62,077 nucleotides of DNA from a virus. The stretch lies in the IMG/VR virus record IMGVR_UViG_3300036861_000916, positions 1 through 62,077 of that record. The stretch is one strand, 5' to 3'. A model generated the notes under the pieces. It was not told the origin of the DNA, made no database searches, and saw nothing but the letters and a program-made list of their open reading frames with translations. The position numbers were made by a program, and so were the translations under genes. Each line of letters begins with the position of its first letter. Position 1 is the stretch's first letter. Of this stretch, positions 18,835 through 57,811 are shown in pieces.

Positions 18835-18851
18835 TGCCCTCCAGCCACCTT

Positions 18852-18966
18852 GCCGGGCCGCGCCGTGCCCAGCCTAGCCGGGCCGCGCCTTGCCCCGCCT
18901 CGCCCATCCACGCCCTGCCGTGCCAAGCCACGCCCGGCCGTGCCATGCCTTGCCCTGCCCCGCCGT
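18852..18966. repeat. pentanucleotide array (GCCNN)x23
   Basis: 23 consecutive in-phase 5-mers, 22 GCCNN + 1 TCCNN; fills almost the whole 133-nt gap between convergent stops at 18834 and 18968. Confidence 0.9.
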
Positions 18967-18967
18967 G

Positions 18968-19603: not shown

Positions 19604-19625
19604 GATATGCCTCCTTGAAGTGAGT

Positions 19626-19810
19626 GCCGCGCCGTGCCTCGCCACGCCATGCCGAGCCGGGCCGTGCCCAGCCACGCCTTGCCTTGCCCTGCCCAGCCCC
19701 GCCTCGCCCTGCCTTGCCCATCCTAGCCGCGCCTGGCCTGGCCACGCCGCGCCGAGCCTTGCCACGCCGCGCCCTGCCGCGCCTTTCCGTGCCGTGCCTT
19801 GCCGTGCCCG
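19626..19810. repeat. pentanucleotide array (GCCNN)x37
   Basis: 37 consecutive in-phase 5-mers, 35 GCCNN + 2 TCCNN; begins 8 nt upstream of the SD of 18968..19603. Confidence 0.9.
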
Positions 19811-19815
19811 GTACC

Positions 19816-19855
19816 AGTTCAAGGTGCAAAAGCTGTGCCATTTTCGAATTCAACT
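19816..19855. promoter_or_regulatory. pair of AGTT(C/G)AACT-type palindromes, 31 bp apart
   Basis: AGTTCAAGG 19816..19824 and AATTCAACT 19847..19855. Confidence 0.4.
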
Positions 19856-19908
19856 TTGTGTTAAAATAGGAGTGAGCGCGTCGCGCCCCAGTGTCCCAGA
19901 GGAGGTCC

Positions 19909-22226: not shown

Positions 22227-22670
22227 CTATTCGTCGCCGCACTGCCATCGAAGTTTTGTCTGCAGCGGGTGTGCATCAACTCGGGGTCGGTCCTGGCGGT
22301 TCCACGAACCTCCGCCAGCTTCGCCGACGCAGCGCCATCCGGCAGCGCGCAAGCTCGCCCCGCCCTCTCCGGGTAGCGTGTAGGTGATGAGACGTCGGTA
22401 TCCGAGAGAGCGCGCAGTCCGCCAAGCGGCACCATAGAGGCAGGAGTTCGCGTTCTTCGTCCCGTCCGTGCAACTCCGGCTTACCTCCAGCGTCCATCCG
22501 TCGTCAAGGTGGCGCGACACGGGGCGGCCCACGATCGCCACGCCGACGACCCGCTCCCCCTCGGCCACGGCTACGCAGAATTTCGCGCCAGGGACGGGGC
22601 CGTGATGGCGGTGATGGCACGCCACGAAGGCATTGGCCTCGTCGAGCGTTATCGGGACGATAGTCAACAT
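22227..22670 (-). CDS. GNAT-fold-like protein of the phage/RM-associated family
   Basis: 147 aa; ...ANAFVACHHRHH...VVGVAIVGRPVSRHLDDGWTLEVSR...NANSCLYGAA...LGYRRLITYT. Confidence 0.55.
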   Translation of the reverse strand: MLTIVPITLDEANAFVACHHRHHGPVPGAKFCVAVAEGERVVGVAIVGRPVSRHLDDGWTLEVSRSCTDGTKNANSCLYGAAWRTARSLGYRRLITYTLPGEGGASLRAAGWRCVGEAGGGSWNRQDRPRVDAHPLQTKLRWQCGDE

Positions 22671-24429: not shown

Positions 24430-25626
24430 TCAGCTCGTGAACAGCCCCGGCTGGGCCGTGCGCTTGGCGACGAGCGGCAGGTATTCCGGGTTAAGCTCGA
24501 TGAGGATGGCGCGACGACCGAGAGACTGCGCCACCTGGCCGACAGTGCCGCTGCCGGCAAATGGATCCAGAACCGTGCAGGAGACGGGATCGGCGGCGGG
24601 GCAGTCACAGGTGGGCTGCCAGCCGGTCGTGGCCCATTGCGGCACGTACCCTCCGCCCCGCCAGCCTGGCGACTTGTGCGCCTGGTGCCCTTCGCTTATC
24701 TTTCGAGGGTCGCTGCCACTGACGTGCTTTCCCGCCATCGATTCCGCGACCGCCTGATCCTCCGCTGACTTCTCCACCACCCGCCGCCACGGAGCGCCAC
24801 ACGCCGGGCAGCAGCCGTGTTCGCTCGTGCCCGCGAGGATACAGCGAGCGGCGAGGGCGCGCGGGAAGGTGGCGAAGTGGGCTTCCGCGTACGCCTCGGT
24901 CGGGATGCGCCATACGGTGCGGAGATTGCGACCGGCGGGGTGAGTAAAGCTCTCCCTCTTCGACCCGAACCCGGCGTTAACCCCCTCCCGCAGATTTCCG
25001 CTCGGCGCGTGCCGCCCCGGCGAAACCGCGTACTCTTCCCAGCTAACCTCGGTCCCCGTCTTCTCCCTCACCGCGTCGCTATCGTAGAAGTAGCGCTCGC
25101 TCCGGCTCAGCAGGAACACATACTCGTGTGCCGTCGTCGGGCGATCGCTGACGCTCTCCGGCATCGGGTTCGTCTTGTCCCAGATGCAGCAGCTACGGAG
25201 AAACCAGCCATCTGCCTGGAGTGCGAACGCCACGCGCCAGGCTTGGCCGCAGAGGTCCTTGGGCTTGAGGCCGTCGCCGGCAGGCCGCATACCCGAGTTG
25301 TAGGCACGCCCCGTCCCGCCGTCCGAACTGCCGTAGTCACGGAAGCCGCCCTGCGAAGCGTAGCTGTCGCCCAGGTTCAGCCACAGCACGCCGTCCGGTC
25401 GCAGCACCCTTCGCACCTCGCGGAAGACGGCGACCATACTCGCCACCCACTCGTCCAGCGTCGGTTCTAGCCCTATCTCCTTGCCCTTCAGCGGGTGGCC
25501 GTCGGGCAGGTAGGACCTCAATGCCCAGTAAGGAGGAGAAGTTATGCAGCAGTGGACGCTATCCGCCGGGAGGGTGGGCAGCACCTCACGGCAGTCGCCC
25601 TGCAGCACGGTCAGTCTCTCATTCAT
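24430..25626 (-). CDS. DNA methyltransferase (N4-C / N6-A, PF01555-like)
   Basis: 398 aa; SPPYWALRSY catalytic motif near the N-terminus and C-terminal ...VLDPFAGSGTVGQVA... AdoMet motif. Confidence 0.85.
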   Translation of the reverse strand: MNERLTVLQGDCREVLPTLPADSVHCCITSPPYWALRSYLPDGHPLKGKEIGLEPTLDEWVASMVAVFREVRRVLRPDGVLWLNLGDSYASQGGFRDYGSSDGGTGRAYNSGMRPAGDGLKPKDLCGQAWRVAFALQADGWFLRSCCIWDKTNPMPESVSDRPTTAHEYVFLLSRSERYFYDSDAVREKTGTEVSWEEYAVSPGRHAPSGNLREGVNAGFGSKRESFTHPAGRNLRTVWRIPTEAYAEAHFATFPRALAARCILAGTSEHGCCPACGAPWRRVVEKSAEDQAVAESMAGKHVSGSDPRKISEGHQAHKSPGWRGGGYVPQWATTGWQPTCDCPAADPVSCTVLDPFAGSGTVGQVAQSLGRRAILIELNPEYLPLVAKRTAQPGLFTS

Positions 25627-25650
25627 GTCAGCGATAGGATACCGACGCGA

Positions 25651-25690
25651 AGTTCAATCGTCAAGTGGCGTGTCACCGAGAAGTTGAACT
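25651..25690. promoter_or_regulatory. pair of AGTT(C/G)AACT palindromes 31 bp apart around a TTGACG-N17-TATCCT promoter-like sequence (minus strand)
   Basis: AGTTCAATC 25651..25659, AGTTGAACT 25682..25690; proximal copy centred 29 nt upstream of ATG 25626. Confidence 0.45.
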
Positions 25691-28490: not shown

Positions 28491-29168
28491 CTAGGCGAGC
28501 TTCAAGACCGGCCAGCCCCGGCGCCGCAGGAAGCCGAGAGCTCCGAACCCGAGCAGCCCCAGCGAGCAAGGCTCGGGGACCGGGGTCGGCTGACAGTCGC
28601 TCTTGTCGTAGCGGAACTGCGCCATGGCGAAGTCCACGTCGGAGTGCGCCACGACCTTCGAGAACAGGGCGCCATCGTCCACCGAGGCGAACAGACGCGC
28701 GCCCGCCGCGCCATCGACGGAGCGCGTGATGCTACCCAGCAGCACGTCGCCGGCGTCGTAGAAGTCCGCTGTGATGTCGTGCAGCGCGAATGGATTGGGC
28801 TCCGCCTCGAAGCCGAAGATGCCCGTCGGCGCGCCGAGGAGCATCGTCACCGAGGTTGCTCCCTTGGTCCACAGGACTGCGGGGGTGGCGCTCTCACTGT
28901 CCGGTGGGCTGCTCCAGGTTGCCCAGCCGCCGCCCGGGACCGTCCGCTTCTGCATCGTGCTGCTGAAGCTCACCGTCTCTGTGCCGTCCGTGATCGATCC
29001 GACGTCGGTAAAGTTGGGCAATCCGCTGATGTCGATCTTCGTGGTGGCGAAGGTGTACAGCACGGACGGCGAGGAGATGTCCTCGAACGTCGCGTAGCTC
29101 GGACGGGCGAACCCGGAAAAGAGCATCCCGATCGCGAGCAACGTTCCCAGCTTGGCAAATCCCTTCAT
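28491..29168 (-). CDS. PEP-CTERM-anchored secreted protein
   Basis: ATG 29168 with AAGGAGGAAG upstream; N-terminal signal peptide; C-terminus VPEPCSLGLLGFGALGFLRRRG = PEP motif + TM + Arg cluster. Confidence 0.7.
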   Translation of the reverse strand: MKGFAKLGTLLAIGMLFSGFARPSYATFEDISSPSVLYTFATTKIDISGLPNFTDVGSITDGTETVSFSSTMQKRTVPGGGWATWSSPPDSESATPAVLWTKGATSVTMLLGAPTGIFGFEAEPNPFALHDITADFYDAGDVLLGSITRSVDGAAGARLFASVDDGALFSKVVAHSDVDFAMAQFRYDKSDCQPTPVPEPCSLGLLGFGALGFLRRRGWPVLKLA

Positions 29169-29561
29169 CGCACTTCCTCCTTCGTAACAAGGCGCCCAGT
29201 GTGATCCTCCGGGCGGCAACTGCGGCGCGGCCTGCACATCAGGCCCGGGCGTCGCGCTAGAGCGTCTGCAGCCGGCGCGCCTCGACAGCGAGGACAACGA
29301 GGATAGCGAACGTGGCGAGACACGCCTTCGTCATCGCGATGGCGTAAGCGGCGATCATTGCGAACTCTCCGGCGGCGTGTCCCATGTTCGTTCTACCTCT
29401 TTGTTCGGCTGTCAAGCGTGCATTCAACTGACAGAGAGAGGATACCGGGACCGAGTTCGAGTGTCAAGAGGTCTCCGGTCAGTAATTTCAAGAACCTGGC
29501 GGAGAGGCGGCGGCGGAGTTCAATCGAATGCCCCGCCGTGGGGACGAGGTAGATATTCCGT

Positions 29562-30300: not shown

Positions 30301-30371
30301 AGTTCAAGTTGCAAGAGCGAACATTCGTTCTCGTTGAACTCTTCCTCCATTCCTAGCTGAAAAGTTGAATT
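30301..30371. promoter_or_regulatory. three AGTT(C/G)AACT-type palindromes at exact 31-bp spacing
   Basis: AGTTCAAGT 30301..30309, CGTTGAACT 30332..30340, AGTTGAATT 30363..30371. Confidence 0.45.
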
Positions 30372-30395: not shown

Positions 30396-30929
30396 CTATC
30401 CTCGCCTCTGCGTGGGCTTCCGCTTCTTGCGCCCGTCGAGCCGTCGACCCTCCTGCGGCGGACGTGTGATGGCGTCCTCGACCGTCAGGCCGGCTCGGAG
30501 CCGAAGCCGGAAGCATCGATCGGAGAGCCTCACCTCGCGCAGCCAGGCGGCCAGGTGCTGCGTGCGTCCCTTGATGGTTATGAGGCGCCGCCGCCCGCAG
30601 AGCTCCGACTGCAGGCATCCACAGCTCTTCGTGAGCCCGCCCGCCACGGTTGCTGCCGCGACGACGGTGAGCTTGCCGCACTCGCACCGGCACAAGACCT
30701 GGCGCTGACCGTGGACGCTCCGTTTCCACTCGGAGAGCACCATCAGGCGGTTGAAGACCTCGCCGGGCATGGCGACCCGCTTGCGAGCCGGCTTCGGGTC
30801 GGTGCCCACGAGCACCTGCCGCACGCGCTCGTGGGAGATGCCGAGGGCTCTGCCGATGGACCGCAGGCTCTCGCCCTCCGCGCGCCGCCGCCGTAGCTCA
30901 TCGAGCAAATCGGGCGTCAGCTTCCTCAC
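30396..30929 (-). CDS. HTH DNA-binding regulator with Cys-cluster domain
   Basis: GTG 30929 with GGGAGAGG upstream, in frame of track ORF 30396..31088; ...ESLRSIGRALGISHERVRQVL... then CRCECG...SCGC. Confidence 0.55.
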   Translation of the reverse strand: MRKLTPDLLDELRRRRAEGESLRSIGRALGISHERVRQVLVGTDPKPARKRVAMPGEVFNRLMVLSEWKRSVHGQRQVLCRCECGKLTVVAAATVAGGLTKSCGCLQSELCGRRRLITIKGRTQHLAAWLREVRLSDRCFRLRLRAGLTVEDAITRPPQEGRRLDGRKKRKPTQRRG

Positions 30930-31065: not shown

Positions 31066-31260
31066 TCACCGGGCCGCCTCATCGGCATAGGCCTGGCCGC
31101 AGAAGGGACAGAAGTCGGCGACGAGCGCGACCGGAATTCTGCCGGGCGAGGTCGAGATCACGCCGATGATGACGCGCGGGTCATCGCCGAGGGTCACATT
31201 CAGCTCGGTATCCCACTGCGACAGATACTCGTTCTTTTCGGCGATACAGTTGCACGCCAT
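31066..31260 (-). CDS. hypothetical small protein
   Basis: ATG 31260 overlaps TAA of the GGDEF gene (TAATG); 64 aa. Confidence 0.4.
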   Translation of the reverse strand: MACNCIAEKNEYLSQWDTELNVTLGDDPRVIIGVISTSPGRIPVALVADFCPFCGQAYADEAAR

Positions 31261-31919
31261 TACGCCGCCTCGACCTCGTCGCAGAGCAACTGCTGCAGCG
31301 GGAGGCTCTCGCACAGCAGGCGCAGGCTCCGGGGACGGCAGCCGCGGGCCGCACGCAGGCCCGCCTTCTGCCGAGCCTCCTTCATCGCGCGCAGGTGCGC
31401 CTCCGCTTGCTCGCGGGTCTCGCCGAACCCGAAGGAGCAGCCGGCGCCGGTCGCCGCGCGGGTCTCACCGTCCTCGCCGCGCCAGGCCCAGGCAGCATTG
31501 CGGAAGCGTCGGTCGAGCTGGATGAGCCGGCGCCAGATGGTATCCCTGTCCTCCTCCGTCCGGAACCGTATGCAGAACTCATCGCCACCGACGCGATACG
31601 GGAGACTGCGCTCCTGGAAGCAGGATAGAACAAATGTTTGCAGCATGCTGTCTCCTGCCTGGTGGCCCAGATGGTCGTTCACAAATTTCAAGCTGTCCAG
31701 GTCCAGGATGGCCATGTACGCGCACGGCGCCGCAGACTCGGCATCCTCGAAGGCGCGTGCGGAGAGGGATCCGGTCAGGCGGTCGACGAGGAGTTCCTCT
31801 ACCAGCTCCTCGCGGCTCATCTCCGCGATGCCCTGTCGGCGCTCCAGGTCGTGCCTGCGCTCCGGGCCGGCGTAAGCGGGAGCGGCGGTGAGGATGTCGG
31901 TATCGGTCAGCGTGTTCAA
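31260..31919 (-). CDS. stand-alone GGDEF-domain protein (putative diguanylate cyclase)
   Basis: TTG 31919 (TTGA coupling, GGAGGGA upstream); DRLTGSLSARAF...ILDLDSLKFVNDHLGHQAGD...YRVGGDEF. Confidence 0.75.
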   Translation of the reverse strand: MNTLTDTDILTAAPAYAGPERRHDLERRQGIAEMSREELVEELLVDRLTGSLSARAFEDAESAAPCAYMAILDLDSLKFVNDHLGHQAGDSMLQTFVLSCFQERSLPYRVGGDEFCIRFRTEEDRDTIWRRLIQLDRRFRNAAWAWRGEDGETRAATGAGCSFGFGETREQAEAHLRAMKEARQKAGLRAARGCRPRSLRLLCESLPLQQLLCDEVEAA

Positions 31920-32323: not shown

Positions 32324-32363
32324 AGTTCAACTGCCGGCCAATCAATTAGGCTACGGTTCAACC
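32324..32363. promoter_or_regulatory. pair of AGTT(C/G)AACT palindromes 31 bp apart
   Basis: AGTTCAACT 32324..32332 (centre 29 nt upstream of ATG 32299) and GGTTCAACC 32355..32363. Confidence 0.45.
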
Positions 32364-32513: not shown

Positions 32514-32699
32514 TCAGGCGGGATCGGGGATGGCGGCGAGCGTGTTCAGTCTGCGCGCGTCGCACAGGTCGATGTCGCATTGGAGGTCGTCGGCGTCCTC
32601 AAGGGCTTGTGCGATGACGCGCTCGACCGTCCATTCGCAGCGGCGCGCAAGGTCCATCGCCCGTGCATAGGCTTCGTCGGACAGCTCAAGCGTCTTCAT
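32514..32699 (-). CDS. ribbon-helix-helix-like small protein
   Basis: ATG 32699 (ATGA coupling); MKTLELSDEAYARAMDLARR... resembles CopG/Arc N-termini. Confidence 0.45.
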   Translation of the reverse strand: MKTLELSDEAYARAMDLARRCEWTVERVIAQALEDADDLQCDIDLCDARRLNTLAAIPDPA

Positions 32700-33744: not shown

Positions 33745-34092
33745 CTATCGTATCGCCGACTGTGGCTTCGGCGCCTCAAGGCTCACGCCCAGCTCCGCCA
33801 GCCGGGCGGCGCACCGGGCGACCTCATCGGAGGCGGCACGGTAGCGGGCGAGAAGCGTGTCGACTTCCTCGCGGCGGCGGTCGCGGGCGGTGGCCAGGTC
33901 GCCGTCGTCGACGCCGCAAAAGGCGGCCAAGGAGCGGCGGCTGACGCGCAGGTAACGGCCGACCTTCACGGCGGTCAGCTTCTTCTCGCGGATCAGGCGA
34001 TAGGTGGCGTCGGCCCCGATTTTCAGGAACGCAGCCACTTCTCGCACCGTGAGAATGCCAGGTAACTCGCCGAGATCTCGTGTTTCCATCAC
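33745..34092 (-). CDS. excisionase-family / MerR-like HTH DNA-binding protein
   Basis: 115 aa; LTVREVAAFLKIGADATYRLIREKKLTAVKVGRYLRV. Confidence 0.65.
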   Translation of the reverse strand: MMETRDLGELPGILTVREVAAFLKIGADATYRLIREKKLTAVKVGRYLRVSRRSLAAFCGVDDGDLATARDRRREEVDTLLARYRAASDEVARCAARLAELGVSLEAPKPQSAIR

Positions 34093-34154: not shown

Positions 34155-34718
34155 TCAGGGCGTCTGCACGCTGCTGGCGTCGCTGGCGGACTCCTGAAGA
34201 GCGCCGATCTCGCTTTCGTCGGACTGAAGGCCGGCGGCTTCCTCCAGCTTTGCGATCCGGCTATCGTGTCGCGCGGCGATCTGCGCCATGATGTCCTGGC
34301 GTCGCTTCACCTCGTCGAACTGGGCCTGGAGGTTGTGCGTGATGAAGAGCAGGAGGTCAAGCTCTTGTCGCTCCTCGCGCTCCATCGGGCGCCGATCTAT
34401 CAACCCGCCTGTGAGTCCCGCCCTCTCGATCTTGGTGCCGGCTTGCTCGTGAAGGCCTTCGATCACGTCAGCAGCCTCTCGGGGGTGGACGATTCCGTAA
34501 CCCTCCCCGCGCACGCTGCGGATGAGCTTTCCCTCCGCCTTCAGCATCCTCATCTTCACGCCGTACTTCCCGGCCATGAGGGTCTGGACCTTGCGATAGG
34601 ACAAGCCTGACTTCGCTTCGATTTCCTGGCGGCTGTACTGGCGACCGATCTCGCCACCGGAAAAGACGTCGTGATAGACACGCTCCGCCTGGGTCCTGGT
34701 TTTCGCTTTCGCGTTCAC
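34155..34718 (-). CDS. putative winged-helix DNA-binding protein
   Basis: 187 aa, GTG start with AGGAAGG upstream; first gene downstream of the TCG super-array. Confidence 0.5.
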   Translation of the reverse strand: MNAKAKTRTQAERVYHDVFSGGEIGRQYSRQEIEAKSGLSYRKVQTLMAGKYGVKMRMLKAEGKLIRSVRGEGYGIVHPREAADVIEGLHEQAGTKIERAGLTGGLIDRRPMEREERQELDLLLFITHNLQAQFDEVKRRQDIMAQIAARHDSRIAKLEEAAGLQSDESEIGALQESASDASSVQTP

Positions 34719-34780: not shown

Positions 34781-35364
34781 TCAGATCGCGTCGAGTCGGC
34801 TCGGATCGGATCGGTTCGATCCGGTTCGAACCGCGTCGCATCGACTCGGGTCGCTTCGGTTCGCATCGCGCCTATTCGTCGAACGTTTCGTCTCGCTTCG
34901 GTGCGGATCAGATCGTGTCACTCCGCGTCGCGTCAGATCGAAGCGAATCATTGAACGCGTCGCTTCGGTTCGGATCGCGTCGATTCGGTTCGAGTCGTTT
35001 CGGCTCGGCGAACGTTTCGTCTCGCCTCGCCTCGCCTCGCTTCGGCTCGGTTCGGCTCGGTTCGGCTCGCGTCGCTTCGCTTCGCCTCGCCTCGGCTCGC
35101 ATCGGTTCGTCGAGCGCTTCGGCTCGCGTCGCCTCGGCTCGCTTCGGGTCGGCTCGATTCGTCTCGGGTCGCTTCGCGTCGGCTCGGGTCGGCTCGTCGA
35201 ACGTTTCATCTCGCGTCGGCTCGCGTCGCGTCGCTTCGCTTCGGCTCGGATCGTTTCGAATCGCGTCGGGTCGTCGAGCGCTTCGGATCGGCTCGCCTCG
35301 AGTCAGTTCGCGCCGCGTCGCGGCGGATCGGTTCGACTCGGCTCGGCGAACGTTTCGCGTCAGG
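34781..35364. repeat. pentanucleotide super-array: six runs of (NNTCG/TCGNN)n separated by CGAACGTTTCG / CGAGCGCTTCGG punctuation
   Basis: Runs of 17, 10, 18, 16, 13 and 13 in-phase TCG pentamers; punctuation at ~34876, 35007, 35108, 35195, 35271, 35345; open in several frames on both strands. Confidence 0.9.
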
Positions 35365-35989: not shown

Positions 35990-36216
35990 AACTCCTCCTT
36001 CTTGTCACGCCGAAGATTAACCCCTCGGCACCGCTCTGTGCGGATGGTTGAAGTATACAGACGCAGCGCTGGAACTGCAAGGGGTCAGGCGAACTATTTC
36101 TCGCAGTGCAACGAGACAGGCTGAACTTTCGCTCGGAAGGGATTGCTTCGGTGGCTGTCAAACCGGTAAACTCGCGGCGGGCGCTTGAACCGCCGCACAA
36201 CCGAAGGAGGGCACAG

Positions 36217-37377
36217 TTGAAGGGTCATTTGAGAGAACGGTCGCCCGGTTGTTTTGAGTGTATCGTCAGCCTGGGGCGTGGCCCGGACGGCAAGCCGCGC
36301 CAGAAGAGTCGCACGGTGCGCGGCGGGGTCCGCCTCGCGCAGCGCACGCTCAACACTATGCTGGCGGATGTCGGCTCCGGCAAGCTGAAACCGGCTTGCG
36401 GTGAGACGGTTGCGAGCTACCTGGAGGCCTGGCTCGCGACAACGGGCGCCCTGCGCTTGAGCCCGAAGAGCCATCAGTCCTACTCGGGCGTCTTCCGCGT
36501 CTGGGTCATTCCCGAGCTGGGAGCCTTGCCGCTGGAGAAGTTGACCGCGCGCGACATCGAAGCGTGGCTGGTGCGTGCCTCAGCGCCCGGGGCGCGGCGG
36601 GACGGCAGGGCGGGCTCCCTCTCTCCAGGAAGTCTGCGGCACTACGTCAGGCTCCTGCGCGCGGCGCTGCAGGATGCCGTCCGGCAGGAGCGGCTGCTGC
36701 GGAACCCGTGCGACACCGCAGCGAAGCCCCGGGTTACGCACGAGGAGGTGACAGCGCTTTCGGTGGAGGAACTGCGGCGCCTCGTCCCGGCGACCAGCGG
36801 GCGGCTACGGATCGCGGTGCTGCTCGGTGGGATGTTGGGCTTGCGCGCTGGTGAGTGCGTCGCGTTGCAATGGGCCGACATCGATTTCGGCGCCGGCGTT
36901 GTCACCATCCGGCGCTCGCTGGAGGACACGAAGAAGCGCGGCCTGCAGTTCAAGCTGCCGAAGAGCGGCAAGACGCGCAAGCTGGCGCTGCCGGAGGCCC
37001 TGGCACGCGAGTTGCGGCGGCACAAGGGCGAGCAGGCGACGCAGCGGTTGCAGCTCGGCGACGGGTGGCAGAACAACGACCTGGTCCTCGCGCGCGAAGA
37101 CGGCTCCATCTGGTCCCGGGGCGCACTGTCGACGGCGTTCCGGGACCAGGCGCTTCGGCTTGGGCTGCCCACGACACGCTTCCACAGCCTGCGGCATTCG
37201 TGCGCCACCGCGCTCTTGGGCTGCGGGCAGGGTGCAGCCGTTGTGCAGGCCGTGCTGGGACACAGCACGCCCTCCTTCACGGTGCAGGTCTACGGCCACG
37301 CACTCCCGGAGCACATGCGGGAAGCGGCGCGTGTGATGGATCGCGCGATGGGAGATGCACTGGGGGCCGTTGGATGA
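36217..37377 (+). CDS. int: tyrosine recombinase / phage integrase
   Basis: TTG 36217 (GGAGGG upstream) in frame of track ORF 36106..37377; N-terminal SAM-like arm, C-terminal ...HSLRHSCAT...LGHS...Y catalytic pattern. Confidence 0.85.
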   Translation: MKGHLRERSPGCFECIVSLGRGPDGKPRQKSRTVRGGVRLAQRTLNTMLADVGSGKLKPACGETVASYLEAWLATTGALRLSPKSHQSYSGVFRVWVIPELGALPLEKLTARDIEAWLVRASAPGARRDGRAGSLSPGSLRHYVRLLRAALQDAVRQERLLRNPCDTAAKPRVTHEEVTALSVEELRRLVPATSGRLRIAVLLGGMLGLRAGECVALQWADIDFGAGVVTIRRSLEDTKKRGLQFKLPKSGKTRKLALPEALARELRRHKGEQATQRLQLGDGWQNNDLVLAREDGSIWSRGALSTAFRDQALRLGLPTTRFHSLRHSCATALLGCGQGAAVVQAVLGHSTPSFTVQVYGHALPEHMREAARVMDRAMGDALGAVG

Positions 37378-37558: not shown

Positions 37559-38152
37559 TCAGCCATTGGATTGAAGGCGTGAAGGTTGCCCCAGAAGCCG
37601 CTCCCTGACCTGTTGGCGAATCTGCTCCGCCCGGGACGGTCCTGCCCGCCAGATCGGCAGCGTAGTTCGGCACTCCTGCTCATGTCCGTGGATGTCCAAG
37701 ACCGTGTCTGCGCACACCTGGCACAGGGAGGCCTGGCGTGCGGTGAGCTGCGTATGCTTGCAGGAATGGCACGTATGGCGAGTGCGGCCTAACGGGCCGA
37801 TCCAGTTGCAGCGCGGGCATTCATAGTAACGGTGAGCCGCTCGGGTGCTTTCAGTAAAGTGGTCATTCGGAAGCAAGTCAATCCAGCCGAGCAAGAGTGG
37901 GACCGGCTCGAACCATTCGCCATGCTGCCGGCAGAAGCGAAATGCCGTGTGGATCTCGTTCTCCAAATCATGATCGCCGGCTACCAGTCGAAGCACCTTC
38001 AACACCAGTGGGCTGCAGGCTTGGATGTGACGAAGGCGTGACGCTGGATGGACTGCCACTCCAATCTTGATGAGCCCGCCGTCGATCGGCTGAATGAAGT
38101 AGACGAAGCTGCCACACGTTCTGTGTCGCCTGACGTTGATGTCGATCTTCAT
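37559..38152 (-). CDS. T5orf172 / GIY-YIG-superfamily domain protein with C-terminal zinc ribbons
   Basis: 197 aa; FVYFIQPIDGGLIKIGVAVHPASRLRHIQ...E.EIHTAF...GEWF; then CPRC...CHSC. Confidence 0.6.
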   Translation of the reverse strand: MKIDINVRRHRTCGSFVYFIQPIDGGLIKIGVAVHPASRLRHIQACSPLVLKVLRLVAGDHDLENEIHTAFRFCRQHGEWFEPVPLLLGWIDLLPNDHFTESTRAAHRYYECPRCNWIGPLGRTRHTCHSCKHTQLTARQASLCQVCADTVLDIHGHEQECRTTLPIWRAGPSRAEQIRQQVRERLLGQPSRLQSNG

Positions 38153-38231
38153 GTTGAACCCCCAATGATAGTATATCGATTAGGGTTCAATGAAGCAAGC
38201 CCTTGGCTGCAACTCTCCTGCGCGCGTGAGA

Positions 38232-38260
38232 TTGACAGACGCGCGCCCGCTCGCTAAAAT
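38232..38260 (+). promoter_or_regulatory. near-consensus sigma-70 promoter
   Basis: TTGACA (38232..38237) - 17 nt - TAAAAT (38255..38260). Confidence 0.65.
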
Positions 38261-38413
38261 GGGAGCAGATGGAACTGCGATGGACGCAGCGGGCACGTGC
38301 CGGGCAGATGCCAATTCCCTCATAAGGTGCAGGCGGCCACTGCCGTGCGAATCGGCACCATCTGGGCAGCGGGCGGAGGCAACGATCGAGACGGTGCTTG
38401 GCGCCCGCGCATG

Positions 38414-38466
38414 GTTGGGGCGGCTGGAGCCTAACCGGTCACCGGGTTCGATTCCCGGCCCCGACC
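38414..38466 (+). ncRNA. tRNA-like minihelix 1 (acceptor + one arm + T-arm; no D-arm)
   Basis: GTTGGGG/CCCCGAC acceptor, CCGGG-TTCGATT-CCCGG T-arm, single GCTGG-AGCCTAA-CCGGT arm; only 53 nt. Confidence 0.4.
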
Positions 38467-38476
38467 GTTCGGGCAA

Positions 38477-38545
38477 TGCCCCGTAGCTCGCAAAGGGACG
38501 AGCACCGCGACGGCGGAGGGGCGGGTTCGACTCCCGCCGGGGCCG
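38477..38545 (+). ncRNA. tRNA-like module 2 (normal D- and T-arms, anticodon arm replaced by a 4-bp/4-nt hairpin)
   Basis: GCCCCG/CGGGGC acceptor, TA-GCTC...GAGC D-arm, GCGGG-TTCGACT-CCCGC T-arm, but only 17 nt between the D and T arms. Confidence 0.4.
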
Positions 38546-38561
38546 CTTGCCCGATACTACC

Positions 38562-38633
38562 TTTGGCCTGGTGTAATGGGTAACACGCCCGGCACTGAAC
38601 CGGGAGACGGAGGTTCGAGGCCTCCGGCCAGAC
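38562..38633 (+). tRNA. tRNA-Gln(CUG)-like, with A instead of U at position 33
   Basis: 72-nt cloverleaf folded by hand: TTTGGCC/GGCCAGA acceptor (U1-A72 as in bacterial tRNA-Gln), GTGT/ACAC D, CCCGG-CACTGAA-CCGGG anticodon arm, GGAGG-TTCGAGG-CCTCC T-arm. Confidence 0.6.
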
Positions 38634-38674
38634 CCGAACCCAGATTGATGAGCCGCCGGTAGCAGAGGCGGACG

Positions 38675-38720: not shown

Positions 38721-39062
38721 TTACTCCGTCCGACCGGGCCGGGGCAGACGCCCTTTCAGTCGCCGCTGCTCCTCCTTTGCCTCCTCCAGGAGCCGCTCCA
38801 GCTCCTCTGTTCGACGCTCCAGCTCCTGGCGCTCCCTGTCCTGCTCCAGCGTCCAGGCTCTGGCCTCCGCGACGGCTGGCCTCACCGCCGCATCGAAGAG
38901 CCCATCGAGGTAGGCGCTGTAGCTCAGTCCCAAGTGCTTCGCATAGGCCCGTAGATCGGCGACATCCTCATGATGGAGTATCGCCTCTGCATGTGCGGTA
39001 ACGCCCAGGAACGGCTCGCCTTTCTCGTCCGTCCCCAGAACTTCTCTCGGTTTTCCTCGCAT
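38721..39062 (-). CDS. hypothetical coiled-coil protein
   Basis: ATG 39062 with AAGGAGAGAAAG upstream, in frame of track ORF 38721..39275. Confidence 0.45.
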   Translation of the reverse strand: MRGKPREVLGTDEKGEPFLGVTAHAEAILHHEDVADLRAYAKHLGLSYSAYLDGLFDAAVRPAVAEARAWTLEQDRERQELERRTEELERLLEEAKEEQRRLKGRLPRPGRTE

Positions 39063-39243
39063 CTTTCTCTCCTTCGTGAGAGCTAACTCCAGTGCTGCGG
39101 AAGGGTAGCACCCTTCGGTTAACCGAAGGGTAGCAGGAAGCGTGCCAACTTCAACATCGCGTCGTAACCGGAAATGGTGATTGACACGACTGACATAGAT
39201 TCTCGGTCGGTTGGGGCAAATGCGGGAGGGTGGCGCGGTAGCG

Positions 39244-40053
39244 TCAGCGATCGGCGCCGGTCGCGGGGACACCAAGGGCCTTGCGGATCCGGCGCAGCGC
39301 CCGCCGCTCGATGAGTGCCACGCGCTGTGGAGAGCAGCATACCGCCCTCGCTATCTCGCGGCACGTCTGCCGATCCTCATAGGGTGCGAGTCCATACCGG
39401 CGGAGGAGGAGGTCCCGCTCGCGCTCGCACAGCACGGAGAGAGCGCGGTCGCATAGAAGGGCGTCGGTTACGGCTTCATCGATCGGGGGATCGTCGGAGG
39501 GGAGCACGTCGATCAGTGGGAGGCCCTCGTTGTCATCGCTCGCCGAGGTGCTCGCCTCGAACGGTATCGCCTCCTGGGGCAATGCGCGGAGCCAGGCGAC
39601 CCGCTCCTCCGTCCAGTCCAGCTCGCGGGCGATCTCCTCGTCCGAGGGCGCGCGGCCCTCTCTCGCCTCTAGTTGCCGGACCGTGGCAGTGACCTGGCGA
39701 AGGGCCTTCTGGGCGCCAAACGAGAGCCGGATGCTCCGGGAGTGTCTGTCCATCGCCTGGTAGAGAGTATTCACGATCGAGTGATGCGCGTATGTCGCGA
39801 GCCGTGCGCCCTTTGCGGGATCGAAGCCGACCAGCGTGCGCAGGAACGCCAGTCGCGCCTCCTGGAGGGCGTCATCCGGATCCAGGAAGCTTGCGTGGAT
39901 CCGACCTGCGAGTTGGCGGATGAGGCGATGGTGTGCGGCTACGAGCCTGCGCGACGCCTCCGCCGGGTCCACATCGTGGCGCTTGCCCTGCACGCACAGG
40001 CAGAGCATGACTTCCTCTTCGCGGCTCATCCGCTCCGTCTCCATCGCCATCAC
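39244..40053 (-). CDS. sigma-70-family RNA polymerase sigma factor (group 3-like; regions 2, 3 and 4)
   Basis: 269 aa; ...DDALQEARLAFLRTLVGFDP.KG.RLATYA...; C-terminal ...RQTCREIARAVCCSPQRVALIERRALRRIR region 4 HTH. Confidence 0.85.
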   Translation of the reverse strand: MMAMETERMSREEEVMLCLCVQGKRHDVDPAEASRRLVAAHHRLIRQLAGRIHASFLDPDDALQEARLAFLRTLVGFDPAKGARLATYAHHSIVNTLYQAMDRHSRSIRLSFGAQKALRQVTATVRQLEAREGRAPSDEEIARELDWTEERVAWLRALPQEAIPFEASTSASDDNEGLPLIDVLPSDDPPIDEAVTDALLCDRALSVLCERERDLLLRRYGLAPYEDRQTCREIARAVCCSPQRVALIERRALRRIRKALGVPATGADR

Positions 40054-40399
40054 CGCGCTCCTCCTCGCAGTTCAACGCTCGTGCGGCACGAAGAAAGAGA
40101 AATTCCGGTTTTGTCGCTGTAAGCCGAGACCGGAAACTCGTCTCTACACACCTTCGCCACTGACGGCCCGAGGGAAAGCAGGCTAGGTGGGCACCCGCAA
40201 TGTCGTTCTCCCTGCCACGGGAAGGCCGTTCAGTTACTGCATTGGCTAGTCAGCAAGTTTCCCTTGCAGCTCTTCCGTTGGCACGGGAGCCATTGCAAGC
40301 CGCGGGGATTTATCCCCGGCGGTCACTGACGCTAACACGTCTCAGGCTCCATTTTAGCATGCAAGATGCGAGTTGAACAGATCGCAAAGAGATGTAGAC

Positions 40400-40428
40400 T
40401 TGCATGAAAACCGATGCGCGTGTATCAT
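40400..40428 (+). promoter_or_regulatory. sigma-70-like promoter for the lysis/packaging operon
   Basis: TTGCAT (40400..40405) - 17 nt - TATCAT (40423..40428); AGTTGAACA palindrome at 40371..40379 upstream. Confidence 0.5.
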
Positions 40429-40466
40429 GAAGAAGATCAACATCCGAATTCGACGAAGGAGGCAAC

Positions 40467-48237: not shown

Positions 48238-48636
48238 TCAGGCCTCCTCCGGCTCATGCGCCGAGTCCTTGCACGCGAGGGTGCAGGTGGCCCGCGAAAC
48301 CAGCGCTCCGATGCACTCCAGCGTTTGGACGCCCTCCTGGTGTTCCGCCCGGGCGCCGCAGGGGCAGCGAACTTCGGCGCTCAAGCGGTTGGAGCCCTTG
48401 GCCATCAGTAGTGTGAGCCTGCCGGATCGGAGTGCCGCGCACCAATGGCAGCGCCAGAAGATCCACTGCATCGGTTCTCCCGCGGCATCCACTCCCAGCC
48501 GCCCCAGGATCTCGCGGAGCGCGTCCATCGTCCGGGAGCGCGCCGCCTGTTCTGCGGCATCGGCCTGCGATGACAAACGCGAGCACTCGGCAGCATAGGT
48601 AGCCTTGGCAACGTCCAAGACCTCATCTAGCCTCAT
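48238..48636 (-). CDS. hypothetical Cys-containing protein
   Basis: 132-aa ORF, first of a coupled minus-strand block. Confidence 0.45.
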   Translation of the reverse strand: MRLDEVLDVAKATYAAECSRLSSQADAAEQAARSRTMDALREILGRLGVDAAGEPMQWIFWRCHWCAALRSGRLTLLMAKGSNRLSAEVRCPCGARAEHQEGVQTLECIGALVSRATCTLACKDSAHEPEEA

Positions 48637-48965
48637 CCCTCACCTCCCGCCATCACCCTCGCCATCGCCTTCGCCGCCGAAAACTCCACGCCCAGTACCC
48701 GCAGCTCCATCCGCGCCCGGGCCACGCTCTCCTCCATCTGCAGCACGCGTTCGCGGGAAACCTGCGTCGCGGCGCGCACCTGGGCGGCTCGCAAGGCCTC
48801 GTTCCGGCCATCGATGGAGCCGGAGAGCAGGTGCGAGTCCTCGCATCGGGTCAGGTGCTCCCGTGCCGCCGTTAGGCCACGGTCCATCAGCAGCGCGTGT
48901 GCTTCCGCCTCGGCGATCTTGCCCGGCAGCGTGGCGAGCGCGTTCAAGACTGCGTTGCGTGTCAT
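48633..48965 (-). CDS. hypothetical protein
   Basis: ATG 48965 in frame of track ORF 48633..49190; ATGA coupling. Confidence 0.45.
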   Translation of the reverse strand: MTRNAVLNALATLPGKIAEAEAHALLMDRGLTAAREHLTRCEDSHLLSGSIDGRNEALRAAQVRAATQVSRERVLQMEESVARARMELRVLGVEFSAAKAMARVMAGGEG

Positions 48966-49126
48966 CGGGGGGTATACTCCTCGATCGTGTAGGTGGCACC
49001 GTTCGGATAGTCTCGCTCCGTCTCCTGCCAGAAAGCCAGGGCCTTCTCGATCCGCTCCCGCTTCTTCGAGTAGGTCACGGTTGTTCTCCTGCCGAGCCTG
49101 GTCTTTACCAGGCGATACTTCGTCAT
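48962..49126 (-). CDS. hypothetical small protein (54 aa, below track cutoff)
   Basis: ATG 49126 with AAGGAG upstream; MTKYRLVKTRLGRRTT... Confidence 0.4.
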   Translation of the reverse strand: MTKYRLVKTRLGRRTTVTYSKKRERIEKALAFWQETERDYPNGATYTIEEYTPR

Positions 49127-49168
49127 GGTCGTGTCTCCTTTGGGCGGGGCAGCGCCCCTCTACTTCGC

Positions 49169-49378
49169 CTACAGCTCGCGCTCGGAGCACTCCGCATGGG
49201 CCAGGCCTTTACCGTCGCCGCTGCGGTAGAACGGGACGGCGTAGCCGATGGGCTGGCCACACAGCGCACAGGCGTTCTCGGCGTCCTGCCGCAGAAGCGC
49301 GCAGTTTCTGTGCTCGCAAGTGCCCTCGCACGGGCCTCTCTGGTCACCTGGGTTATGGATCAGTCCCGCTGTCACCAA
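49169..49378 (-). CDS. Cys-rich small protein
   Basis: 69-aa ORF with 7 Cys. Confidence 0.4.
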   Translation of the reverse strand: MVTAGLIHNPGDQRGPCEGTCEHRNCALLRQDAENACALCGQPIGYAVPFYRSGDGKGLAHAECSEREL

Positions 49379-49440
49379 AGTTCTCCTCTCGAAAGTGGGC
49401 GTGGCAACTCTCCGGGATGTCCGGAGAGTTGGTCCGTCGG

Positions 49441-49974
49441 TCAGGCGAAGATGCGGAGGTAGGAAGCCTGCTCCTCGTCGCTCAACGGCGGCAGGTAGGG
49501 CGCCTCGGCCTCCTCCTGCAGCTCGCGGAAGGTCTCACGGATCTCCTCCGGCGTCATCTCCTCGCAATCGACCGACACCGGCTCGCACAGCTTGCAGATG
49601 ACCTCGCCCGTCGACTCGTTGATGCGCGCCTCGGACTGCCGCAGTGGCTCGTGGCACCATGAGCAGACGAAGGGAGAGAACGTGTCGGGCCACCTGCCTT
49701 CCGGGGCCGAGCGCGGCGTGAGCAGCGCCTTGCCTTCGGCGAGCAGCTTGTGGGCGAGCGCCACCTGATGATAACAGCGAGCTCCCACCTTGCTGCAGCG
49801 GTTCTGGTAGTCGGCGCAGTCGCAGTGCTCGGCGCTGACCGTGTAGGTCTTGCCGCTCGGGCTCTCGCACTGCCAGGAGCCGGCGGGCGTCAGCGACCAG
49901 ATGAGATCAAGTCCCTTGCCGAAGGCGCGGGCGACGCGGGCGTCCTGATCAAGGCCGTCAAATCGTCTTTCCAT
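49441..49974 (-). CDS. SWIM-zinc-finger protein
   Basis: ATG 49974 with GAGGAGG upstream; CDCADYQNRCSKVGARCYH = CxC...CxH SWIM pattern; further CxxC pairs. Confidence 0.6.
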   Translation of the reverse strand: MERRFDGLDQDARVARAFGKGLDLIWSLTPAGSWQCESPSGKTYTVSAEHCDCADYQNRCSKVGARCYHQVALAHKLLAEGKALLTPRSAPEGRWPDTFSPFVCSWCHEPLRQSEARINESTGEVICKLCEPVSVDCEEMTPEEIRETFRELQEEAEAPYLPPLSDEEQASYLRIFA

Positions 49975-50065
49975 CGTATCCTCCTCTGCTAGTAGTTCAA
50001 TCGACCTACTCATGTATCGGCTGCCAAGCTCAACTTCTGAAGGGCACGTTTCGGACCAATTCAAC

Positions 50066-50356
50066 TCACGACTCCTCGTCCTCTTCCTTCCACAGCCGCC
50101 CGCTCGCGAGCCAGTAGGCCAGGATCTCGATGACCGCGGCGGCTCGCGCCCTGTCCAGGCTCGCGACGCAGCCGCCACCGATCTTCAGGATGAGCTCGTC
50201 CGGGTCGGCCAGCCCGGTCACGGCATGAGCACCGCTGCCAGCCATCTCCTCGAACCTCACCAGCGGCCCGTTGGTCGCGATGAACTGCTTCGCCCGCAGG
50301 CTCTTCGGCGTCTGGACATCGAATACGGCGAATGGCTCGCCAGTCTTGGAACTCAT
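50066..50356 (-). CDS. hypothetical acidic-tailed protein
   Basis: 96-aa ORF, AAGGAGAC upstream. Confidence 0.45.
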   Translation of the reverse strand: MSSKTGEPFAVFDVQTPKSLRAKQFIATNGPLVRFEEMAGSGAHAVTGLADPDELILKIGGGCVASLDRARAAAVIEILAYWLASGRLWKEEDEES

Positions 50357-50452
50357 GGCTTTGGTCTCCTTCGCCTATAGTCTACCGGTGGCGGTTGAAC
50401 AGAGCAACCCCTTATAATGGAACCAGGTGAACTTTTGCGTCGGGAGGACCCT

Positions 50453-52902: not shown

Positions 52903-53160
52903 TCAGGGCTCCTCCGTCTCCCCGCGCTCTATTGCTCGGCTGTTCATACACTGGAGATACATCGCCGCTAGTTCCCGCGCCTCGTCCCTGGCCTCGCAAG
53001 CCGTCCGGTATTGGCTCTGTAAGTCGCGTATCTGTTCGTAGGCCAAGTCGATCTCTTGTGCGCGTCGGTCCAATTCGTTAATCAACGCCTCAACTTGATG
53101 CGTGATGTCCTGTGGACTATTGGTCATCGTCGTTTGCTCCTTGCTAGGTGTGCGCCTCAT
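52903..53160 (-). CDS. hypothetical coiled-coil protein
   Basis: 85-aa ORF. Confidence 0.4.
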   Translation of the reverse strand: MRRTPSKEQTTMTNSPQDITHQVEALINELDRRAQEIDLAYEQIRDLQSQYRTACEARDEARELAAMYLQCMNSRAIERGETEEP

Positions 53161-53410
53161 CGCTCTTCAGGACAAAGGCGATTGGCTCTACCGGATCGCC
53201 GGCGGTGTGGCGTTTGCTGAACTGGATTGCTCTGGTCGGTAGTCGATACCATGTCCCGGGCCACTGGCAGGCCCGGTCCCAATGTTCGCCCAGCGTCTTG
53301 ATAATCCATTGGCCACCGAGCTGTTCTCGCAGAGCGCGCGCGATAGGGCACATCGTGGCGCTCCCTGCGACTGCACCCTGGATGTGGCGCTCCTCGACCC
53401 GGATCTTCAT
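53144..53410 (-). CDS. hypothetical protein
   Basis: 88-aa ORF. Confidence 0.4.
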   Translation of the reverse strand: MKIRVEERHIQGAVAGSATMCPIARALREQLGGQWIIKTLGEHWDRACQWPGTWYRLPTRAIQFSKRHTAGDPVEPIAFVLKSDEAHT

Positions 53411-53506
53411 TCGGTTCCTTTCTGCGTGACGTGATACGCTTGACGCGGCAGCGGTCCACCCGCGCTCCTCGCGGCCCCGGAGCGTCAGGAACTCCGGGGC
53501 CGCACC

Positions 53507-53836
53507 TCATGTCTGGCTGGTCCTGTCACGGTCATCTTCGCCATCCATACGCTGCCTCATCCACTCGCGACGGTATCGATCGGCGTAGGCGTCTAATTGC
53601 GCAGCGAGCCAGTCCGGCTTGATTTCTCGAAGCTCATCCGCCGTCGCCGTCGCACATTCGGTGCAGAGCCCGAAGTCCCATGGGCACCATCCCGGCATCC
53701 CCGTCGTCGGGTAACCGTCAAGCTCCCATTCCCAGGCCGTCCACCATCGGCCACAATTCACACATGGGTAGATCCACCAGCCGCGCATGGTGGAGACGAG
53801 CATGAAGAACCATCGGGGCCGGCGCAGTCGCTTCAT
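53507..53836 (-). CDS. Trp/Cys-rich hypothetical protein
   Basis: ATG 53836 (ATGA coupling) in frame of track ORF 53507..53926. Confidence 0.4.
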   Translation of the reverse strand: MKRLRRPRWFFMLVSTMRGWWIYPCVNCGRWWTAWEWELDGYPTTGMPGWCPWDFGLCTECATATADELREIKPDWLAAQLDAYADRYRREWMRQRMDGEDDRDRTSQT

Positions 53837-54015
53837 TCCTTCGGCCTCCGAACTTCGGCTGGCTTCCCGCACTTGTCGCAAGCGGCGGCGTAGACGGTGC
53901 CATCCGGCATGTGGAACTCGAAACAATGGGCGCCTTCGAGCAGTCCGGCTGCCTTCGCCGCTTTGAGCTGGTCAAGAAGGCGGCAGCGGCGATGTCGGAC
54001 AACGCGGCGTCTCAT
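53833..54015 (-). CDS. hypothetical small protein
   Basis: ATG 54015 (ATGA coupling) in frame of track ORF 53833..54066. Confidence 0.35.
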   Translation of the reverse strand: MRRRVVRHRRCRLLDQLKAAKAAGLLEGAHCFEFHMPDGTVYAAACDKCGKPAEVRRPKE

Positions 54016-54335
54016 CGCTCCAGCACCCAGACCTTCTTTGCGCCATGCCCCGCCTCCCCCAAGCACCAGACGGCGCAGCGACCCTCGACCTGCCGGGTAT
54101 CCCAGTCATCGATCTCATCGCGGCCTACGAGCCGGAACCGCACGGTGCTCTCCGATATCCGGCTCGGACTGACCTGCGCGTAGAAAGGATCGCTGTAGTA
54201 GATCTGGAAGAACTCGGTGAAGACACGGGCTACCTCCTCGCGCGTCTCACCTGCTTCGCGGGACACGACCCAGCAGCCCTCTCCGAAGTCCCTCGGCTCG
54301 GCGAAGTACTCGGCGAACTTGCTTGGCTTCGGCAT
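54012..54335 (-). CDS. hypothetical protein
   Basis: ATG 54335 overlaps upstream TAA (TAATG). Confidence 0.4.
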   Translation of the reverse strand: MPKPSKFAEYFAEPRDFGEGCWVVSREAGETREEVARVFTEFFQIYYSDPFYAQVSPSRISESTVRFRLVGRDEIDDWDTRQVEGRCAVWCLGEAGHGAKKVWVLER

Positions 54336-55414: not shown

Positions 55415-55426
55415 GAGGGGGTTTGC

Positions 55427-56037: not shown

Positions 56038-56077
56038 GCTTCAACTTCGCAAGGGGCCGGCGATGTATAATTGAACC
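56038..56077. promoter_or_regulatory. palindrome pair (31 bp) overlapping a TATAAT box 7 nt upstream of ATG 56079
   Basis: GCTTCAACT 56038..56046, TATAAT 56066..56071, AATTGAACC 56069..56077; no SD before the start codon. Confidence 0.4.
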
Positions 56078-56078
56078 G

Positions 56079-57385: not shown

Positions 57386-57531
57386 CGGGCGTCTCCTTTC
57401 GGGAGAGTGGTCGGCTCTCTCGCCGACATAGGGATTGTTCCTCAACTGGTGGCCGAGTGTGAGATAGAAAGTTGAACTGTCTTCAGAGCCGGGGCCGCCC
57501 GGCTAAACCGCGGCGGCCCCTTCCCCGCGCT

Positions 57532-57771: not shown

Positions 57772-57811
57772 AGTTCAACTTCTCCAGGGAGAATTTCGTT
57801 ATGGTTGAACG
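57772..57811. promoter_or_regulatory. pair of AGTT(C/G)AACT palindromes 31 bp apart upstream of the scaffold/capsid genes
   Basis: AGTTCAACT 57772..57780 and GGTTGAACG 57803..57811; third copy GGTTGAATG at 57867..57875. Confidence 0.45.

Follow-up and report, generated by a model that had tools for sequence, protein, structure and literature searches.

Several phage and bacterial systems are known in which short DNA sites place genes under one regulator. The gp71 stoperators of mycobacteriophage L5 are 13-bp (13-14 bp) sequences that are asymmetric, orientation-dependent and unpaired, and the conserved inverted repeats of the Streptomyces phage phiC31 are 17 bp long. Neither of them is known to form a fixed lattice at 31-bp steps. 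Lambdoid operators are 17 bp long (14-17 bp), lie about 23-24 bp apart in two control regions, and are found next to the gene of a CI-like repressor with HTH and S24 peptidase domains. Ribbon-helix-helix (RHH) repressors, such as P22 Arc and Mnt, MetJ, omega of pSM19035, CopG, NikR and FitAB, recognise short palindromic or pseudopalindromic subsites of 7-10 bp, each of which is read by a dimer, and several dimers bind cooperatively. The Arc operator lies inside the promoter spacer at Pant. Mnt forms tetramers through its C-terminal helices, and rigid scaffolds in NikR and FitAB fix the distance between subsites. The C1 operators of phage P1 are asymmetric. P1 also has 11 late promoters, and at each of them the Lpa site is a 9-bp inverted repeat (PMC10695390). 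In the P1 annotation, 4 nt separate the Lpa boxes AAGTGATTT and AAGTTACTT from the -10 element downstream.

Here we analysed a stretch of viral DNA, IMG/VR record IMGVR_UViG_3300036861_000916 (62,077 nucleotides; hereafter the window). A preliminary description of this sequence had drawn attention to a short near-palindrome that recurs between genes, often in pairs 31 bp apart. Like the Lpa site, the recurring sequence AGTTSAACT is a 9-bp inverted repeat, in this case a palindrome with a free centre. Judged from sequence, these palindromes are probably the operators of one symmetric, cooperatively binding regulator that acts mainly as a repressor.

Enrichment and phasing of the palindrome

The exact sequence AGTTSAACT occurs four times in the window against 0.13 expected. 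The core GTTSAAC occurs 17 times against 4.2 ± 2.1 expected, a chance level that agrees with the preliminary estimate of about four; about six of these 17 core copies lie inside genes, which resembles chance. Allowing up to one mismatch gave 18 copies (4.0 expected), 14 of them intergenic, and allowing up to two gave 137 (65 ± 7 expected). A weight matrix derived from the sites and symmetrised gave 38 matches in the window at a score of at least 10. Intergenic DNA, which makes up 18% of the window, held 27 matches against 2.1 ± 1.7 expected, an enrichment of about 13-fold, and coding DNA held 11 against 6.3 ± 2.5, which is near chance. The claimed enrichment between genes is thus confirmed. 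Most of the 20 copies counted earlier are variants with one or two mismatches. The sites are spread over at least 15 regions of the window. Six of the seven divergent intergenic gaps hold at least two sites, 25 of the 42 gaps that precede a gene start hold none, and no site was found in the long tail operon.

Conservation between copies is limited to the 9 bp; the flanks and the 22-bp spacers between paired copies diverge. Among 54 aligned and oriented sites, no second conserved element was detected within 45 bp on either side except the neighbouring copy. The orientation of the central C/G is random (pair types CG 7, GC 4 and same 10 in two genomes). As the central base follows no orientation rule, the site is a true palindrome. 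An early impression that the proximal site of a pair points toward the gene disappeared once the orientations of the central base were counted.

The distances of up to 100 bp among the matrix matches were 31 (eight times), 32, 33, 62, 64 and one 22 bp, with no others. All eight 31-bp pairs named in the preliminary description were found at their centres, and the spacing is significant against shuffled controls, the check proposed there: eight neighbouring pairs exactly 31 bp apart were observed against 0.07-0.2 expected. The upper value comes from shuffling 32 intergenic sites within gaps that already carried sites, in which the maximum was three pairs in 5000 trials. The members of the listed pairs are present, but those centred at 36018 (AGATTAACC) and 57443 (TCCTCAACT) are weak, with three mismatches each. 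The offset of 29 nt from the proximal copy to the start codons at 25626, 32299 and 35989 is arithmetically correct. Our analysis added the clusters 29425/29458/29521 and 36123/36187/36219, the single site 39152, the pair 50397/50429 (32 bp), and the sites 49998 (33 bp from 50031) and 40438 (63 bp from 40375). The sites and the other features of the window are listed in Table 1.

Table 1 Palindrome sites, predicted promoters and genes of the window, with the corresponding gene module in relatives. Site centres and spacings are given in parentheses; positions with a sign are relative to predicted starts.
Feature	Position	Strand	Remarks
Site pair AGTTCAAGG / AATTCAACT	19816..19855 (19820, 19851; 31 bp)		Divergent gap 19604-19908
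Site pair	25651..25690 (25655, 25686; 31 bp)		About -26 and -57; upstream of methylase gene
Predicted promoter TTGACG-17-TATCCT	25664-25636	-	Site 25655 in spacer
Site cluster	29421..29525 (29425, 29458, 29521; 33 and 63 bp)		
Weak site ACTCGAACT	(29458)	-	In spacer of predicted TTGACA-17-TATCCT (29467-29439, -)
Site triple	30301..30371 (30305, 30336, 30367; 31 and 31 bp)		About -26, -57 and -88
Predicted promoter TTGCAA-17-TATACT	30314-30286	-	Reference for the positions of triple 30305/30336/30367
Site pair	32324..32363 (32328, 32359; 31 bp)		
Site in pair	(32359)		Overlaps -10 (TAAGGT) of predicted TTGCAC-18-TAAGGT (about 32390-32361, -)
Site in pair	(32328)		Leader, about +27; 29 nt before ATG at 32299
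Integrase-region cluster	36014..36191 (36018, weak; 36050; 36123; 36187)		
Site in cluster	(36050)		Overlaps -10 of predicted TTGCAG-17-TATACT (-)
Weak site GCTTGAACC	(36187)		10 nt after -10-like TAAACT upstream of integrase; position conserved with relative
Site pair	38152..38192 (38156, 38188; 32 bp)		Abuts start of T5orf172 gene (ATG 38152)
Single site ACTTCAACA	39148..39156		Between sigma gene and 113-aa gene
Single site	40069..40077		20 nt upstream of sigma start codon
Two sites	40371..40442 (40375, 40438; 63 bp)		About -60 and +4 of predicted promoter
Predicted promoter TTGCAT-17-TATCAT	40400-40428	+	Lysis/terminase/portal operon
Site triple	49994..50066 (49998, 50031, 50062; 33 and 31 bp)		Between two genes of the - strand
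Site pair	50393..50433 (50397, 50429; 32 bp)		Divergent gap; 50397 in spacer of leftward predicted TTGCTC-17-TAGACT; rightward TATAAT, 6 nt, then 50429
Site pair	56038..56077 (56042, 56073; 31 bp)		Common to divergent predicted promoters
Predicted promoter TTGCGA-17-TAGACT	56052-56024	-	Sites at -25 and -56
TATAAT	56066-56071	+	Overlaps site 56073; Mu F-like ATG at 56079
Site pair	57439..57478 (57443, weak; 57474, perfect; 31 bp)		
Site pair	57772..57811 (57776, 57807; 31 bp)		Divergent gap upstream of scaffold/capsid operon
Mom-like protein	22227-22670		Accessory gene
CcrM-like N6-adenine methylase	24430-25626		Accessory gene
PEP-CTERM-tagged secreted protein	28491-29168		Accessory gene
GGDEF diguanylate cyclase domain protein	31260-31919		Accessory gene
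Excisionase-family HTH_17 protein	33745-34089	-	Conserved C-terminal helix
Tyrosine integrase	36106-37377		
113-aa protein	38721..39062	-	Immediately downstream of sigma gene
RpoD/RpoS-like sigma factor	39244-40053	-	Regions 2, 3 and 4 present; region 1 absent
Amidase, large terminase, portal	41.8-48.2 kb		
Mu F-like, scaffold and capsid genes	From 56 kb		Running on into tail genes at 0-19 kb
Sigma and small-protein module	38721-40053		Relatives: L182 316-1515; L186 4902-6114; L187 4948-6153; L021 about 4100-5413
5-bp-periodic arrays	8693-8782; 18848-18967; 19624-19808; 34800-35340		

Position of the sites on predicted promoters

Promoters were predicted as consensus matches of the sigma-70 type, (C)TTGAC-N17-TAnnCT, and the sites fall into classes relative to the predicted starts. 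The spacer class is centred at about -26, directly 3' of the -35 hexamer and 8-9 nt before the -10 (sites 25655, 29458, 30305, 50397 and 56042); additional copies of this class are found at -57 and -88. Counted over the window, seven sites lie at this fixed distance of 8-9 nt upstream of a -10 of the form TA(T/G)NCT. The class at about -5 overlaps the -10 itself (TATAATTGAACC, TAAGGTTGAACC and TATACTTCAACC at 56073, 32359 and 36050, respectively) and has a partner at -36 or +27. Sites at +6 with a partner at +37 are frequent in the related phages described below, and the commonest class across five phages is at about +4 to +8. Fewer sites are found near -46, +17, +27 and +37, and some flank rather than overlap predicted promoters (e.g. 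-46/+17, -65 and -90). Measured against ordinary -35/-10 pairs, the sites thus span positions -90 to +39. By these predictions the palindrome is on or beside almost every promoter of the phage, and site clusters mark the predicted promoters. The clusters can therefore serve as a handle for promoter annotation in these phages.

Conservation in related phages

Viral contigs were scanned with a strict pattern that required two perfect copies at a distance of 31 bp. Of the 14 loci obtained, one belongs to a true relative (IMGVR_UViG_3300045912_000522, hereafter rel1; 58.7 kb, about 66% G+C). The recovered 47.7 kb of rel1 are syntenic with the window, and the proteins are 36-80% identical. Protein searches added three more relatives, L182 (rel2, a short contig), L186 and L187. 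All four relatives carry the same motif, in many copies perfect, with proteins 35-82% identical to those of the window. The spacings are 30-32 bp and multiples thereof in rel1, L186 and L187; those in L182 are double the unit, at 61-63 bp.

At orthologous promoters the sites are kept as islands within otherwise diverged DNA. At the 32.3-kb promoter, a 58-bp stretch that contains the site shows 81% identity between the window and a relative, gTATAATTGAA is kept at the Mu F promoter, and the gap upstream of the scaffold gene contains a pair in the relative as well. Comparison of the region upstream of the integrase gene revealed the additional weak site 36187. Placement also changes: at one promoter with the same -10 and leader, the sites are at -26/-57/-88 in the window vs +6/+36 in the relative. 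In four of the five phages (the window, L182, L186 and L187), a site precedes the sigma start codon by 20-24 nt, and the site at 39148..39156 is kept in the 92%-identical contigs L183 and L184.

Loci L005 and L016 (the same phage) and L014 matched the search pattern by construction and were rejected as relatives. They contain unrelated tandem repeats, with three copies of a full 31-bp unit containing AGTTGAACT (L005 12880-12980, L014 1700-1780), and the L005/L016 repeats adjoin a tRNA-like sequence. In these repeats the whole 31-bp unit is conserved, unlike the window, where only 9 bp are. A sigma search of viral contigs and a portal search of genome contigs yielded no relatives, and both metagenome scans found nothing. 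The KGG-protein matches L017-L019 have 36-38% GC and show no phasing. A scan of GTDB genomes with an integrase profile gave 79 loci, mostly in Alphaproteobacteria, at 25-39% identity; at none of them were other phage genes in synteny or the motif enriched, so no host could be inferred. The lineage is sparsely sampled, with only four relatives in the large collections searched.

Gene content of the phage

The 62-kb window has a G+C content of 65.7%, and its gene content is typical of a temperate tailed phage. Megablast of 12 kb against 50,697 deposited phage genomes found no match at the nucleotide level, and a portal search gave only distant actinophage matches (about 31% identity). The PEP-CTERM signal of one accessory protein hints at a Gram-negative, exosortase-bearing host; by eye, a PEP-CTERM-like C-terminal tail is also present in a relative.

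The head-morphogenesis region (portal, Mu F and scaffold) is broken by blocks of small genes on the reverse strand (48238-50356, 53144-56002 and 57179-57717) and by the gene of an 814-aa protein (50453-52897) with no family match. The 48-56 kb insertion is absent from rel1, in which the Mu F gene directly follows the portal gene. HNH endonuclease-like genes occupy differing places among the relatives (30396-30929 in the window; 4205-4720, 6673-6999 and 18502-18999 in L187) and resemble mobile insertions of homing endonucleases; the copy in the window carries an HTH at its N terminus.

Several intergenic gaps contain G+C-rich arrays of up to about 540 bp with a 5-bp periodicity (GCCGA/CGANN-like pentamers; Table 1). 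One adjoins the site pair 19820/19851 and another lies upstream of the palindrome-free operon at 34718; tandem repeat finding (TRF) on rel1 did not find such arrays. A near-consensus promoter match (TTGACA-17-TAAAAT, 38232-38260) is followed by a non-coding stretch. Within this stretch, two tRNA T-arm-like sequences (38440-38460 and 38520-38540) adjoin a tRNA-Gln(CTG) gene (38562-38635), the sole call of ARAGORN and Rfam in 38232-38640. From their sequence, the T-arm-like elements at 38440-38540 could be a tRNA fragment of attP or degenerate tRNA-like genes. A similar T-arm-like sequence lies 3' of a perfect site pair in a relative (L009 2470-2490). The Mu F-like gene has its ATG 7 nt after TATAAT (56066-56081), and the methylase gene has its ATG 9 nt after TATCCT and lacks a Shine-Dalgarno sequence (25624-25641). 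Both genes are probably leaderless or nearly so.

Candidate binding proteins

The preliminary description had proposed three proteins, besides the sigma factor, as candidate binders (a putative RHH protein at 32514-32699 and HTH proteins at 30396-30929 and 34155-34718). None of the three has a homologue in the 47.7 of 58.7 kb available for rel1, which uses the identical motif, and the protein at 30396-30929 matches HNH-endonuclease families; these candidates are not supported. Three non-structural and possibly DNA-binding proteins, and no others, are conserved in the relatives: the sigma factor (35-43% identity), a 113-aa protein (32-47% in four relatives) and the excisionase-like HTH_17 protein (50-53%). 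The sigma factor and the 113-aa protein are present in all four relatives. The HTH_17 protein is seen in every relative but one, whose contig measures only 3.4 kb. In all five phages, the sigma gene is immediately followed by the gene of a 110-114-aa protein. A CI-type repressor was not recognised among about 60 ORFs scanned against Pfam (no HTH_3 or S24 match).

The 110-114-aa protein has no detectable family elsewhere in 1.8 billion representative proteins; homologue searches with the 113-aa protein returned only itself, one 92% variant and one 40% relative. Sequence and profile searches gave no Pfam, PHROG or PDB match. It has a basic N-terminal arm and a C-terminal helix of about 55 residues that AF2 predicted with high confidence. 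The two AF2 models as a whole were of low to moderate confidence, and two Foldseek runs gave nothing significant (E >= 2.9). Its core is possibly RHH-like, an assignment made by eye only; hhalign placed it in register with the RHH domain of Mnt, at a probability of 0.2%, which amounts to no significant match. No tool gave significant support for an RHH fold in any of the conserved proteins.

Among phage-encoded proteins, we tentatively favour as the binder the 113-aa protein encoded next to the sigma gene. The excisionase-like HTH_17 protein is a second conserved DNA-binding candidate, and the sigma factor is also a candidate. The likely DNA-reading parts of both small proteins vary, and the motif is invariant across the phages, which favours a host factor or an unrecognised binder. 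As a speculation to which we give little weight, the C-terminal helix of the 113-aa protein might act as a rigid ruler that joins DNA-bound dimers head to tail every 31 bp, forming a short filament over promoters and, with the phage sigma factor, switching whole-genome expression programmes. If this holds, the repressor architecture and the sigma-plus-partner module would be of a kind not previously described.

Proposed operators of a cooperative regulator and other explanations

The preliminary description had left a choice between operators of one cooperatively binding regulator and a promoter element for the phage sigma factor. The lack of an orientation rule and of a fixed partner element, together with phasing that is combined with flexible and evolving placement, argues for an operator set, and so does conservation of the sites with turnover. 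We infer binding by one sequence-specific protein with two-fold symmetry, a dimer of which would read each palindrome. Dimers 31 bp apart, i.e. three helical turns on the same face of DNA, would touch each other and bind cooperatively. The lattice could extend to three or more sites at 31-bp steps, and the triples suggest chain-like growth. Nearly every cluster puts at least one copy on a predicted core promoter (in the spacer, in the -10/start region or at about +6), where occupancy would block RNA polymerase. Most transcription units might thus be repressed at once, among them the early and accessory units, those of the integrase and the late genes, and also the sigma operon. The sign of regulation is suggested by the placement at -26, -5 and +6, which points to repression by occlusion.

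The same geometry would be expected if the lineage had recruited a global regulator of its host, encoded outside the window. The motif is identical in five phages whose conserved small DNA-binding candidates share only 32-53% identity and have different residues at the likely DNA-reading positions. This is consistent with a host factor, as is the lack of a recognised CI-type repressor among the scanned ORFs. However, the motif was not enriched at the 79 alphaproteobacterial and other loci with the nearest integrase relatives, a literature search for the motif gave nothing relevant, and dispersed phage-encoded regulons of such a kind are well known. We regard a host factor as less likely, but as a serious alternative. 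It is also conceivable that the boxes serve an activator or have a dual function, with the spacer box recruiting polymerase, perhaps together with the RpoD-like phage sigma factor, in the manner of the Lpa box. The Lpa sites at the 11 late promoters of P1 provide a precedent, the seven window sites have a fixed distance to the -10, and the conserved pair of sigma and 113-aa genes suggests a factor working with sigma. However, these promoters have good -35 hexamers at 17 bp, so that an activator is not needed. Positions -5, +6, +27 and +37, at which many sites are found, do not allow an activator to function, and the 31-bp pairs and triples have no counterpart in P1. Activation accordingly appears improbable to us.

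A reading of the motif as a -35-like TTGAAC element for the phage sigma factor draws on the resemblance of the core to TTGACA, on the RpoD/RpoS-like nature of the sigma factor and on a few TTGAAC-16/18-TAnnnT combinations. It is very improbable given that the 54 oriented sites show neither a conserved second element at a fixed distance nor an orientation bias, and that sites occur upstream of, over and beyond the predicted core promoter (about -57, -26, -5, +6 and +37), including over -10 boxes and downstream of predicted starts. We give hardly any credence to the idea that the motif has no trans-acting function and reflects duplicated promoter cassettes or a word related to methylation or restriction. 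The promoters at 25655 and 29458, and those at 32359 and 36050, do look paralogous, and genes for a CcrM-like methylase and a Mom-like protein are present in the phage. However, only the 9 bp and not the 22-bp spacers are conserved between copies, the sites are kept or moved across relatives with 55-80% identical proteins, and a methylation word would be neither confined to intergenic DNA nor phased at 31 bp. Operators of one cooperative regulator, mainly a repressor, thus remain our preferred reading.

Several known elements were also considered and set aside. The spacing to the -10 is wrong for a SigB-type or ECF-type reading of the motif, and the spacing is wrong for a sigma-54 reading of the TTGCA boxes. 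The half-site arrangement differs from the LexA, FNR and CtrA consensus sequences. An RNA-level hairpin was rejected because many sites lie upstream of the predicted starts.

Comparison with known systems

With the palindromes read as operators, the system would be of a known kind, a dispersed phage regulon with cooperative operators, and appears to resemble those of P1 C1/Lpa, L5, phiC31 and Arc/Mnt/omega. P1 C1 and Lpa share with it the principle of one regulator that acts on many scattered units through a short conserved site at each promoter. The C1 operators differ in being 17-bp features in the P1 annotation. The Lpa box is single, lies 4 nt from the -10 (centre at about -22) and replaces the -35. 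In contrast, the gap to the -10 in the window is 8-9 nt, TTGNNN hexamers precede the -10 by 17 bp, boxes come in pairs with a 31-bp spacing, and copies also occur at -5, +6 and +37, that is, also downstream of the start. Searches of the window for an Lpa homologue by tblastn and phmmer found none (best E = 0.26-0.69).

The stoperators of L5 and the repeats of phiC31 are alike in that tens of repressor sites are scattered across the intergenic regions of a temperate phage genome. Unlike the stoperators, the window site is palindromic, follows no orientation rule and is paired at 31 bp. The lambda operators offer a parallel for cooperativity between dimers on the same face, with one site over the promoter and a second that stabilises binding. 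However, the sites described here are 9 bp long, are spaced at 31 bp and occur in at least 15 regions, and the scanned ORFs gave no HTH_3/S24 match. The RHH systems likewise use short, two-fold symmetric subsites, comparable with the 9-bp palindrome, its phased copies and the cooperativity suggested by them, but in the known systems the subsites are 7-22 bp apart vs 31 bp here.

The tight 31-bp phasing and the movable sites make this lineage a natural system for studying distance-constrained cooperative repression, and the lineage offers a route to a DNA-binding protein that is probably new. Nearly all of its transcription units appear to be wired together by one 9-bp word. Three features set the system apart from those above: a very short palindrome on a rigid 31-bp lattice, the coverage of nearly all units including the late and integrase units, and the link to a conserved pair of genes, for sigma and its partner, in a lineage that is unclassified.
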